DNA of 64,000 nucleotides from a bacterium (GCA_965202625.1 CBDBBI010000010.1:2240001-2304000), one strand, 5' to 3'. Shown: positions 56,242 through 58,871, counted from the stretch's first letter. Notes: generated from the sequence alone by a model not told the origin. A program made the numbers and translations.

Positions 56242-56353
56242 CCGATGAAGACGCGCCCCCGCGGCGGGGAGGGATTCCGGGTGTTTCGCCATGTCTCCGA
56301 AAGCGGGGGAGCGGAGGACGAGGCTTGAGCAGAAAACTTCTTTGTCGTCTCTC

Positions 56354-56812
56354 CTACAAAGCGCCGTTGATGGCGTAGTTCAAAATTCTCACCACCTGTT
56401 CCGGTTCTTCCGCCACGGCCATGGCGGCGGCGTCCACCTCCTTGAGCGCGTGGGCGTGCCCCGCCCCGTGCAGGGTGATGAGGGCTTTTCCAAGTGCCGC
56501 CGCGTAGCCTGCGTCAAAGGCGGCGTTCCATTGTTTGTATTTCTCTCCGAAGCGAACGACCACGACGTCCGCTTTTTCGATCAGAGTGCGCGTTCTGATG
56601 GCGTTGACGCCGGCGCCCTTGCTGTCTTTCCAAAACGGTTTTTCCTCATCGCCCAGAATGGACGTCCCGCAGTTGTCGCTGGCGTCATGGTCCGTGACGG
56701 GGCCCGTAAAGGTGACCGGCAACCCCGCTTTCTGCGCACCCTTCTGGATTCTCTCTCGCCAATCTGTATGGACTTCGCCCGAGAGATACACGCTCCAGCT
56801 GGCCTGCGACAT
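56354..56812 (-). CDS. ytoQ: YtoQ family protein (nucleoside 2-deoxyribosyltransferase-like fold)
   Basis: VYLSGE.H.DWR, P.TDH..SD.CG, RFGEKYKQWNAAFDAG and H.LKEVD; AAGGAGG RBS. Confidence 0.9.
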   Translation of the reverse strand: MSQASWSVYLSGEVHTDWRERIQKGAQKAGLPVTFTGPVTDHDASDNCGTSILGDEEKPFWKDSKGAGVNAIRTRTLIEKADVVVVRFGEKYKQWNAAFDAGYAAALGKALITLHGAGHAHALKEVDAAAMAVAEEPEQVVRILNYAINGAL

Positions 56813-56882
56813 GGCGATGCCCTCCTTGTCCCGGAAAACGAACAGTGTTGAAAGATAGGGTTTCTTGCTTCGGGCGACATGG

Positions 56883-56911
56883 AAAACCCCGGCCTGTAAA
56901 GGCCGGGGTTT
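56883..56911 (-). terminator. Intrinsic terminator (possibly bidirectional)
   Basis: AAACCCCGGCCT-GTAA-AGGCCGGGGTTT, with T-runs on both strands. Confidence 0.75.
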
Positions 56912-56984
56912 CACCTTTCGGTGGCCTGGTGGGGATTCGCCTGGGCGAAAGAAAACCCGGGAATCTCCTCAGGGTCCCTCTCCC

Positions 56985-57023
56985 CTAGGCGCCAGCCACC
57001 TCGTCCCTACAGTCTATTTTCAT
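56985..57023 (-). CDS. Small ORF MKIDCRDEVAGA
   Basis: ATG 4 nt after a 16-nt perfect complement of the 16S rRNA 3' end; TAG at 56987-56985. Confidence 0.6.
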   Translation of the reverse strand: MKIDCRDEVAGA

Positions 57024-57055
57024 AATAGGATCACCTCCTTTCTGACGTACCTGTA

Positions 57056-57084
57056 ATGATGCCAAAAGTGCGAAGGAAAGTCAA
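57056..57084 (-). promoter_or_regulatory. Sigma70-like promoter for the small-ORF transcript
   Basis: TTGACT, 17-bp spacer, CATCAT, with an extended -10 TG. Confidence 0.55.
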
Positions 57085-57152
57085 CGCGGGATAGGAACTG
57101 CGCCTGACATCCCTCCGCCGTCCGTGATATACACGTTTCGCGTAGCCGATGC

Positions 57153-57245
57153 GGAGAGGTGTCCGAGAGGCCGAAGGAGTACGACTGGAAATCGTATAGG
57201 TGCCCACAAGGTGCCTCGAGGGTTCGAATCCCTCCCTCTCCGCCA
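57153..57245 (+). tRNA. tRNA-Ser (anticodon GGA)
   Basis: Acceptor stem GGAGAGG/CCTCTCC, anticodon arm TACGA-CTGGAAA-TCGTA, long variable arm, GGTTCGAATCC T-arm, discriminator G and encoded CCA. Confidence 0.97.
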
Positions 57246-57704
57246 CCTTTGGCGGCCAATGTATTATATCAAAACTTCTCGCAGCCCTTGCGGCGGATGC
57301 GGATGCCCCCTCGCCGCCATCACGCTCGACAACCTGCTTTGAACGCCTTTTGCAACGCCCTTGCACAGCCGTTTTATGAGCCGTTTACGCCCCGAAAAAC
57401 GGTTTTTTTCCAGGCGGTTCGCAATGATTTTTGTTTGGCTACGTTCGCAAGGGAAATTGCGTTTGGTCGCACAGGGAAAAAATCTCGCGACAGCCCATGC
57501 TCCAGGGAAAGCGCGAGGATCACCTCGTTTAAAGGACCGCTCCCAGAAGGATTAAAACAACCCACCGGGTGCGCGAGACGAAAGTGTTCGCGCGAGAAGG
57601 GCGGGCGTATGAGAGCCGCCCTTCGGTTCGCGTGTCCTCCCCGCGTGCCCATCCATCGGCGCGGGCCGCCTGAAGACGAGCGGATGCGACCGAGAATGGA
57701 ATCC

Positions 57705-58871
57705 CTAACGCTCGTCAATCGGCGTGTAGGGCGACTCCAGGTCGCCGACGTAGACCGCGCGAGGTCTGAAGAGCCGGTTGTCCGGCAGATATTCGAGAAT
57801 CCGCGCGGACCATCCGGCGATGCGCGGCACGGCGAAGATAGGCGTGAACATGTCCGTGTCGATTCCCATGGCGTTGTAGATGACGCCCGAGAAGAAATCG
57901 ACGTTGGGGAAGATGCCTTTGCCGCCCAGATCCGCCACGACCAGGGCTTCGAGCTTCTTCGCTATCTCGTAGAGATGCGCTGTGCCGGCGCGCTCGGCGA
58001 ATTCCCTGGCGACGGGGTCGAACAGCCGCGCCCTCGGGTCGTAGGCCTTATAGACGCGGTGTCCAAAGCCCATCACCTTCACCTTCTTCTCTTTCGCCGC
58101 CTTGAACCATTCCTCCGTAGTGGCGGGGTCCCCGATTTCTAGGAACGTGCGCAGTGTGGCTTCGTTTGCCCCGCCGTGCAGGGGCCCCTTGAGCGACCCG
58201 ATGCCGGCGACGATGGAGCTGTAAAAATCCGTGAGGGAGCTGTTCGTCACCATGGCGGAGAAAGTGGAGGCGTTCATGCCGTGCTCGGCGTGAATGATGA
58301 GCGCCATGTCCATCACCTCCGCCGTGCGCGCGTCGGGCGCCGCGCCCGTCATCATTCTCAAAAAATCCTCGGACAATCCCTTCGAGGGGTCCGGCTCCAG
58401 AATGGATTCGTTCCTTCTCGTCCTCTGAATGGCTGCCACAAGGGTGGGAAACTGCGCCGTCAGCGTGAGCGCGATGTCGAAATCATTCTCCACGCTCACG
58501 TCAAATTCCTCGGGGTTCAGACAGCCCAGCATGGAGACGGCGGTGCGCAGCGTGCTCATGGGATGGCATCTTGGGGCGAGTTGCGCGATCAGGTCTTTTA
58601 CTTCCGCCGGAACGCTTCGGCGCGAGGCTAAATCCGCGTTGAAGGCTTCGAGCTCCGAACCGGTGGGCAGCTTCCCGTAAAGCAGCAAATAGGCCGTTTC
58701 CTCATACCCTCCGCCTCCGGCGCAGAGATCGTCAATGCTGTATCCACGATAGATCAGTTTCCCGTTCGCTCCATCCACGTAGCTGATGGCGCTTTCGTTC
58801 GTGATGGCCCCCTCAAGACCTTTCTTGAATTCCACGCTTCCGACAAACTGGCGAGGTTTTTCTTCAGCCAT
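57705..58871 (-). CDS. Citrate (or 2-methylcitrate) synthase, short dimeric type
   Basis: GLEG, L.YRGY, HAEHGMNAST, GPLHGGAN, GFGHRVYK..DPR and PNVDF. Confidence 0.95.
   Translation of the reverse strand: MAEEKPRQFVGSVEFKKGLEGAITNESAISYVDGANGKLIYRGYSIDDLCAGGGGYEETAYLLLYGKLPTGSELEAFNADLASRRSVPAEVKDLIAQLAPRCHPMSTLRTAVSMLGCLNPEEFDVSVENDFDIALTLTAQFPTLVAAIQRTRRNESILEPDPSKGLSEDFLRMMTGAAPDARTAEVMDMALIIHAEHGMNASTFSAMVTNSSLTDFYSSIVAGIGSLKGPLHGGANEATLRTFLEIGDPATTEEWFKAAKEKKVKVMGFGHRVYKAYDPRARLFDPVAREFAERAGTAHLYEIAKKLEALVVADLGGKGIFPNVDFFSGVIYNAMGIDTDMFTPIFAVPRIAGWSARILEYLPDNRLFRPRAVYVGDLESPYTPIDER

Follow-up and report, generated by a model that had tools for sequence, protein, structure and literature searches.

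A conserved minus-strand unit with a 16-nt Shine-Dalgarno region, very probably an Ms_IGR-5-like, ribosome-engaged small mRNA

Results

A compact unit between tRNA-Ser and ytoQ

The window, by which we mean the whole 64,000-nt stretch of bacterial DNA analysed here, carries on its minus strand, at positions 57084-56883, a compact unit composed, in this order, of a promoter, a Shine-Dalgarno (SD) region, an ATG, a 12-codon ORF, a long hairpin and a terminator. Promoter search located a -35 hexamer, TTGACT (57079-57084), and, 17 nt from it, an extended -10 element, TG-G-CATCAT (57056-57064, with the hexamer at 57061-57056); TTGACT/CATCAT is the only promoter-like combination in the 56300-57800 interval, shuffled versions of which yielded 0.3 sites on average. 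The TTGAC is retained in 29 of 30 aligned relatives, the exception (L031) being truncated by the end of its contig, and the -10 site of relatives reads GATGAT, GATAAT or CATGAT at the same place. In that truncated copy (L031/L080, G033:C63) the contig starts 29 nt before the ATG, and the absence of an SD is probably an assembly-end artefact. Judging from the distance to the -10 hexamer, transcription is predicted to start at 57048-57050, and the predicted RNA is about 167 nt in length (roughly 165-167).

The 16-nt SD region, AGAAAGGAGGTGATCC (57028-57043), was recognized by sequence match as complementary to the 16S rRNA 3′ tail over its entire free length. It is followed by the 12-codon ORF MKIDCRDEVAGA (56985-57023), delimited by translation and by comparison with relatives, in which the ATG occupies 57023-57021 and the TAG 56987-56985. 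In the minimum free energy (MFE) fold of the window's copy, the start codon is enclosed in a hairpin (57006-57030) formed by pairing of the SD 3′ end and the spacer with codons 5-7. Further downstream, RNAalifold supports a long hairpin (56920-57000), the 5′ strand of which consists of codons 8-12 and the stop codon (GGTGGC..GG/GCCTAGG), and the 3′ strand of which ends in CCAGGCCACC. The alignment reveals an unpaired AATCCCC motif (56931-56937), which is near-invariant in relatives and matches the AAUuCCcc consensus of the Rfam family Ms_IGR-5. Around this unpaired motif, the sequence CGAATCCC (56930-56938) has 8 nt identical to part of the T arm of the neighboring tRNA-Ser (57216-57235), which may be a matter of chance. 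The unit is closed by an intrinsic terminator (56883-56912), supported by folding and covariation, with a 12-pair stem in the fold of the window's copy and a T run after it.

An earlier note, made from the sequence alone, had described the unit as divergent from tRNA-Ser and located upstream of ytoQ, and both neighbors were confirmed: tRNA search placed tRNA-Ser(GGA) on the plus strand at 57153-57245, and the gene at 56354-56812, situated 3′ of the unit on the same minus strand, encodes a YtoQ protein (Pfam PF11071, E = 3.4e-66). The promoter, ORF and terminator listed in the same note are likewise all in place. A conserved CTGACA about 25 nt from the -35 of the unit, in the region 57085-57245, is probably the -35 element of the tRNA gene, and shared growth-rate control of the unit and the tRNA is a possibility.

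Complementarity to the 16S rRNA tail

Every one of the 16 SD positions is Watson-Crick complementary to the 3′ tail of the host genome's own 16S rRNA, GGATCACCTCCTTTCT, which upholds the exact 16-nt match on which the earlier note was centered. The single 16S gene of this genome (C10:2185208-2186759) is some 110 kb distant and does not fall within the window, and there is indeed no further rRNA sequence in the vicinity of the 16-mer. When both strands of the 3.09-Mb genome were searched for maximal exact matches to the 16-mer, we found 818 at 8 nt, 223 at 9, 59 at 10 and 15 at 11, none at 12-15 nt, and two at the full 16 nt, namely the 16S gene and the SD of the unit. The gap between 11 and 16 nt makes this SD a five-base outlier rather than the upper end of a continuum of ribosome-binding strengths, and the restriction of the 16-mer to these two sites agrees with the view, voiced earlier, that so extreme an SD is not a chance product. 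Its 14-nt part, GAAAGGAGGTGRTC, occurs one to three times per genome in 35 of the 42 family genomes, three being the maximum in any of them, and in all four genomes checked the second site corresponded to the 16S 3′ end. The extra 14-mer in genome G015 (L225, G015:C64:478990-479250), an assembly of 8 Mb in 70 contigs, has a long CT-repeat next to it; the DNA around it looks repeat-rich and foreign, and possibly represents host DNA in the metagenome-assembled genome (MAG).

Substitutions of A to G within the SD of relatives, e.g. in G064, stay pairable with the unchanged 16S tail through G-U pairs. In ViennaRNA calculations, the duplex between the SD and the tail amounts to -28.4 kcal/mol, to be set against a cost of 6.0 kcal/mol for opening the SD, while the duplex of the 8-nt SD core yields only -13.1 kcal/mol. 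The AGAAAG portion of the SD is predicted to be unpaired (p = 0.86-0.98), being exposed in a hairpin loop.

Since the plus strand at this point reads as a 16S 3′ end, and a tRNA gene is found 110 nt further on, one could think of a chance match or of a relic of an rRNA operon. No other rRNA sequence is present nearby, however, and promoter, ORF and terminator are conserved across the family and beyond, which refutes this explanation and leaves it practically without a chance of being correct.

Distribution in the lineage

All 22 genomes of the same genus contain the unit according to DNA search, as do most of the sister genera. Of 41 further family genomes, 37 returned full-length matches, one each, to a covariance model built from 29 copies of the unit. 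The four misses are G061, an assembly only 67% complete, G030, G032, and G024, in which the match was limited to a terminator-like piece. Two other families of the same order, represented by one genome each, yielded no covariance-model match, while in a sister family of the same class weaker full-length matches (E = 1e-9 to 3e-7) were found in five of seven genomes; the GTDB phylum in question is represented by just 51 species in the searched collection. The public records that bear this element consist of MAGs, which go under the labels Nitrospinota, Nitrospinaceae, Candidatus Tectomicrobia or just "bacterium". Secondary weak matches to the covariance model in G031, G025, G027 and G064 proved to be ordinary terminators at gene ends. 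The earlier view of the region as a self-contained, transcript-like unit under selection is upheld.

RNA fold and covariation

Eight helices are backed by RNAalifold and by counts of pairs in 41 distinct sequences. Overall, 96.1% of cells in the consensus pairs are paired, 28 of 47 pairs show changes on both sides, none of 500 shuffles equalled these values, and controls slid along the alignment are 37-55% paired, figures to be read with the reservation that the alignment was fitted to the model's own structure, which biases it towards that structure, and that the sequences are relatives, so that the counts are not independent. Helix 1 joins the 5′ leader with the SD core, leaving AGAAAG in its loop; it shows little covariation and is lost in the sister family. 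In helices 2 and 3, the SD 3′ end, the spacer and the start region pair with codons 5-7, and seven of the eight pairs change on both sides. Helices 4-7 constitute the long hairpin, which is 94-97% paired with compensatory changes, and the 3′ strand of which has CCAGGYCACC at its end. The terminator forms helix 8, with a consensus of 13 pairs, 99.2% of cells paired, and compensatory changes in 9 of the 13.

These data allow an evaluation of the pairings that had been proposed from the single sequence. The main one, between GGTGGCTGG of the ORF and the downstream CCAGGCCACC, holds, and its variable pair appears as A-U in 26 sequences, G-C in 10 and G-U in 3. The GATTC/GAATC stem said to be enclosed by it is pairable, with 87% of family cells paired, but displays no covariation and would have to cross the consensus helices as a pseudoknot. 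The alternative CACC-GAAA-GGTG hairpin is a peculiarity of the host genome and is not conserved, as two of its four pairs are unpaired in 8-13 of 28 sequences. The GGTGG of the ORF has two CCACC partners in the host genome (56920-56929 vs 56928-56932); in the host MFE fold the first of them pairs with GGTGG and the second enters CACC-GAAA-GGTG, most relatives being limited to the second. The pseudoknot candidate between GGAGATTC of the apical loop and GAATCCCC has pair counts without covariation, and the energy of this duplex differs significantly from that of shuffled motifs in 18 of 40 own-lineage sequences and in 2 of 69 listed metagenome sequences, a comparison confounded by a second GAATC within the hairpin of one subfamily. 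A putative antiterminator, combining the 3′ strand of the hairpin with the terminator, was rejected by eye because its apparent co-variation broke down in L003 and L004.

The reading frame and its recurrence in metagenomes

A start codon after GGAGG, followed by an open frame, is present in all 39 distinct relatives listed. In the unit's own family the frame comprises 12 codons ending in TAG, and the peptide conforms to M[KRT]xxC[RSI][DGS]EV[AT]xx. The sister family has a frame of 14 codons (e.g. MKKSSCSDREVAEV), with two in-frame insertions and TGA at the same stop position; its loci (L091-L095) mostly start with TTG, or else with ATG, have GGGAAAGGAGGTGATC as their SD, and carry no tRNA within about 500 nt. 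Starts interchange between ATG, TTG and GTG, and stops between TAG, TGA and TAA at one fixed position, while ORF length varies only in whole codons (12, 13 or 14). The conserved residues are those encoded within helices 2-5, and synonymous alternatives to TGT, GAG and GTG were never seen in aligned relatives, whereas codons 3-4 and 11-12 are free to change. Although the consensus leaves the stop codon's A and G unpaired, stop codons alone are found there. This combination of helix-bound residues, free codons and fixed stops points to selection on the positions of initiation and termination and on the RNA fold, and we read the target of selection, as far as sequence comparison can tell, as ribosome docking plus a fixed start and stop, and not the peptide.

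Metagenomes were scanned with a pattern consisting of GAGGTGRCYG, a gap and AATYCC...CAG.YCRCC, with SD, start and stop left unspecified. There were at least 119 matches, 80 of which were examined as loci, with 77 evaluable and 3 cut by contig ends. In 71 of the 77 evaluable listed loci, 11-16 consecutive positions are pairable with the 16S tail, the remaining six lacking the design and representing chance matches. Among these 71 listed members, all 16 SD positions are pairable, G-U included, in 65; an ATG, TTG or GTG is situated 7-12 nt after GGAGG in 70; the frame has 12 codons in 40 loci, 13 in 16 and 14 in 14; 69 have TAG as their stop, and the distance of the stop from GAG is five codons in all 71. 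The TAG of the window's 12-codon ORF is also five codons from the conserved GAG, and the same test applied to the genome collection returned the SD, ATG, 12 codons and TAG in 23 of 23 evaluable loci. The N-terminal halves of metagenome subfamilies are wholly different (MIDLWTC.., MHSFRTG.., MNDDKCTVC.. vs MKIDCRDEVAGA). One subfamily of 13-14 codons (L105, L112, L130, L133 and L171, with M[IN]D..C.[VD]CEVAET) has, by eye, the same downstream neighbors, an opposite-strand M24-peptidase-like gene and an acyl-CoA carboxylase beta-like gene, and its hairpin harbors a second copy of GAATC that could compete for GGGGATTC.

It could be argued that the 12-residue peptide (MK..C[RS]DEV...) is itself the active product, and that the strong SD merely ensures its high expression: the frame is intact in all relatives, indels are in-frame, and C, E, V and [AT] are retained both in the lineage and in the sister family. 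However, the retained residues coincide with helices 2-5, where three codons never change synonymously, four other codons vary, and the N-terminal halves of other subfamilies are not only unrelated but in some cases devoid of Cys (e.g. MHSFRTGEVAVR). For comparison, the peptides of the alphaproteobacterial small mRNAs rreB and rreR are described, in passages of PMC5711450, as unstructured, and putative overproduction of the RreB peptide left growth unchanged. We therefore regard an active micropeptide as improbable, though the peptide may act as an effector within a given lineage. The resemblance of its C-terminus to SsrA-type degrons, mentioned in the earlier note, is not sustained either, as the last two residues vary freely (GA, GV, GT, AV, VV, AD, EV) and the N-terminal halves differ.

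Neighboring genes and the question of ytoQ

An upstream tRNA on the opposite strand is found in 21 of 21 family loci, some of which share genomes; it is tRNA-Ser(GGA) in 14 and tRNA-Cys(GCA) in 7, the latter being the neighbor in two genera and the former in most. No tRNA neighbor is present in the five 1.1-kb sister-family loci or in any of 60 metagenome loci. In a genus of low G+C content (L097, G026:C24; G+C of the element 0.42), the unit adjoins both tRNA-Ser and the SRP RNA gene.

On the downstream side, ytoQ is found in 10 of 11 same-genus loci, the exception being L021. No other-genus locus examined has it there, its place being taken by hemE-like or unrelated genes, once on the opposite strand. 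Inspection by eye of 15 metagenome loci, among the matches listed, did not reveal a protein neighbor common to the subfamilies. Such variation of neighbors indicates that the unit stands as a gene on its own instead of serving as a dedicated leader.

RNA-library evidence consisted of contigs assembled from four runs, which carry no information on strand, ends or level. Contigs from two runs of one study, identical at 99% or more, cover 56300-57022 and 56697-56993, bridging the terminator into ytoQ, while none of the contigs of the host organism in the four runs covers 57023-57150. Small shares in two sponge-labelled runs (X5 and X6) were traced to a piece of ytoQ and to tRNA look-alikes. As these contigs are without strand or ends, and DNA carry-over is possible, we do not take them as evidence of either a transcript or read-through.

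These observations bear on the suggestion that the unit serves as a leader or attenuator of ytoQ, acting through ribosome-dependent read-through of its terminator. The arrangement within the genus is suitable, with ytoQ on the same strand, starting about 70 nt past the terminator in the window and present in nearly all same-genus loci, and two RNA-library contigs from one study do span the terminator. Nevertheless, those contigs show neither a strand nor a single transcript, the gene downstream differs or is reversed in other genera, and the family is free-standing in other phyla, where it has no neighbor in common. Moreover, some 70 nt separate the G+C-rich terminator from the stop codon, too far for a terminating ribosome to reach. 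As a general role, attenuation of ytoQ, which the earlier note had entertained, is thus not borne out, the linkage being confined to one genus and the unit being closed by a strong conserved terminator, and we consider it very unlikely even for the window's own copy.

Relationship to the Rfam family Ms_IGR-5

At Rfam gathering thresholds, the window yielded tRNA only. At relaxed thresholds, the unit was aligned over the full length of RF02471 (Ms_IGR-5) with 26.6 bits, the gathering score being 45, and it is the best match to this model in the genome (E = 4.7e-4, with the next at E = 1.7). Other sub-threshold Rfam matches (rnk leader, DsrA, anti-hemB, sX4, Plastid-psbl-rps4) were discarded as terminator or tRNA look-alikes. 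When 14 related loci were scanned, RF02471 also matched 10 of them (E up to 0.1). A pair of these, from sister genera, exceed the 45-bit cut-off (L100 with 55.1 and L098 with 47.5), and three further loci reach 42-43.5 bits. The same two loci score 108.5 (L100) and 110.5 bits (L098) against model R1, and are therefore clear homologues of the window's copy. Because orthologues pass the cut-off, the window's copy can be viewed, by transitive homology, as a diverged member of Ms_IGR-5. In the alignment of the 55-bit copy to RF02471, the start coincides with UUG in the consensus and the stop with UAG, with 12 codons in both.

The earlier note could not assign the unit to a known family, a position that does not stand in view of the Rfam link to RF02471 and the design shared with the rre small mRNAs. 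Ms_IGR-5 corresponds to IGR-5, or ncMSMEG15794c, of M. smegmatis (mentioned in PMC10454040). Individual passages in the literature report its validation by RNA-seq in S. lividans (PMC8079986), its occurrence as a transcript unit in S. avermitilis (PMC8780764), and ribosome-protected reads on it in M. abscessus and M. smegmatis (PMC4974804). Our literature search, which had supplementary sRNA tables outside its scope, returned no functional study of Ms_IGR-5, its peptide or ncMSMEG15794c.

Discussion

A ribosome-engaged small mRNA

We are fairly confident, on the strength of the comparative data, that the unit belongs with the ribosome-engaged small mRNAs of the Ms_IGR-5 type. If the mechanism outlined below is included, the view of the unit as a free-standing, single-copy small mRNA/sRNA gene, a diverged member of the Ms_IGR-5 superfamily outside Actinobacteria, still appears to us on balance the better one, while for the individual steps of docking and unzipping the case is evenly poised.

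In this mechanism, the folded RNA would expose, out of the 16-nt SD, only AGAAAG, with the SD core, the SD 3′ end and the start region held in weak pairs. The 16S tail would seed on the exposed loop and zip up a 16-bp duplex, thereby opening the start region and docking the 30S subunit tightly. The ribosome would then translate the 12 codons while unzipping the long hairpin, as it must, given that the 5′ strand of this hairpin is made of codons 8-12 and the stop codon. Termination would occur at the fixed stop, nearly always UAG, nine bases after an SD-like GAGGUG, a spacing that resembles the one between the real SD and the start codon. By analogy with rreB, ribosome engagement would probably set the fate of the RNA, and its level or occupancy may report on, or tune, the pool of free ribosomes. 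We infer transcription, 30S binding, translation and any physiological effects of the unit.

Hahn et al. (RNA Biol 2017; PMC5711450) describe rreB of Bradyrhizobiaceae and rreR of Rhodobacterales, and in passages of that report rreB is an mRNA of 165 nt, carrying a 14-codon ORF and an SD of 17 nt that is unique, which co-sediments with 30S subunits, is weakly translated, being impeded by its long SD, and depends on its start codon for stability. We found no later functional study of rreB or of extended-SD small mRNAs in the literature.

Of the three readings offered in the earlier note, engagement of the ribosome or its 30S subunit is the best-supported, and that part of its first reading stands, while simple sequestration of 30S subunits does not fare as well. 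A trans-acting RNA or 30S sponge, titrating 30S subunits or pairing with mRNAs through AAUCCCC, with the ORF of secondary importance, would benefit from the extreme predicted affinity for the 16S tail, from the co-sedimentation of rreB with 30S and from the conserved single-stranded motif common to Ms_IGR-5. On the other hand, according to passages of PMC5711450 overexpressed rreB left growth unchanged, and its authors argue that rreB is far outnumbered by ribosomes, which makes sequestration doubtful as a purpose, and a pure sponge would have no need for the start and stop that are conserved here at fixed positions. We therefore consider a sponge or trans-acting RNA unlikely, if somewhat less so than an active peptide, and adhere to the ribosome-engaged small mRNA.

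Implications of a recurring design

A much bolder proposal, which we put forward only as a speculation that is most probably wrong, is that the Ms_IGR-5 superfamily, including the window's copy, is an ancient cross-phylum device for reading the state of the translation machinery. If this were true, the 16-nt SD would capture only those 30S subunits that have a free 3′ tail, the SD-like GAGGUG, placed at an invariant distance of nine bases before an almost invariant UAG, would re-engage the anti-SD on the terminating ribosome, and occupancy or decay of the RNA would report the supply of free 30S or RF1-dependent termination and recycling. The gene for RF2, with which such a device may be compared, senses its own product. 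In the present lineage, the back-to-back tRNA promoter would tie the device to growth-rate control.

Ms_IGR-5 is catalogued in Rfam as an actinobacterial sRNA, and rre has been described only from Alphaproteobacteria. Our data indicate that the design, with its four parts (an SD for the whole tail, a frame of 12-14 codons with a fixed stop, a hairpin unzipped by the ribosome, and a terminator), recurs beyond the actinobacterial Rfam family in at least an uncultured marine lineage with the label Nitrospinota and in unlabelled metagenome subfamilies, and such recurrence points to a basic interaction with the ribosome and not to a lineage-specific regulator. What is new here is not a class of RNA but a set of cross-lineage constraints, which specify the bases that pair and attach importance to start, stop and frame but not to the peptide. 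The unit is, in addition, a recognizable gene that standard annotation pipelines have overlooked.

Comparison with known systems

With leader-peptide attenuators the unit shares a short ORF laid over alternative pairings and followed by an intrinsic terminator before a gene. It differs from them in that the downstream gene is not conserved, there is no antiterminator backed by covariation, and the ORF lacks runs of regulatory codons; its SD, moreover, goes far beyond the needs of any leader.

The likeness to the rre small mRNAs is closer, although it derives from their description and not from sequence, and rre genes have been reported from Alphaproteobacteria alone. Both are RNAs of about 165 nt with their own promoter and terminator (predicted in our case), both possess a genome-unique 16-17-nt complement to the 16S tail, and in both only the 5′ bases of the SD are predicted to be single-stranded and could act as a seed; rreB, according to a passage in PMC5711450, also adjoins a tRNA gene, that of tRNA-Gly. 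The small ORF has 14-18 codons in rre and 12 in the unit. The complementarity ends four bases before the ATG in the unit, whereas in rre it runs into the GTG start codon's initial base, and binding to 30S was shown for rreB and is deduced for the unit.

Closest of all is Ms_IGR-5, from which the unit is nevertheless set apart in several respects. The host belongs to a different phylum, and the window's copy, with its 26.6 bits, remains below the cut-off of 45. All 16 positions of its SD are Watson-Crick matches, as compared with 13-15 matching positions in the listed metagenome members; the start is ATG, while TTG is common elsewhere; and the N-terminal codons are unrelated. A helix that Rfam draws between the 3′ part of the SD and codons 10-11 is absent here, where it would include two non-pairs, and the SD 3′ end pairs instead with codons 5-7, while the divergent tRNA of the present lineage is missing from 60 of 60 metagenome loci. 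Against these differences stand an alignment over the full length of the 184-position model, an SD that complements the 16S tail over 13-16 nt, aligned start and stop codons giving 12 codons, a GAGGUGRCYG at codons 8-11 whose pairing partner is a CAG.YCACC further downstream, a terminator preceded by an AAUYCC motif that is left unpaired, and a free-standing organization, predicted here from the conserved promoter and terminator.
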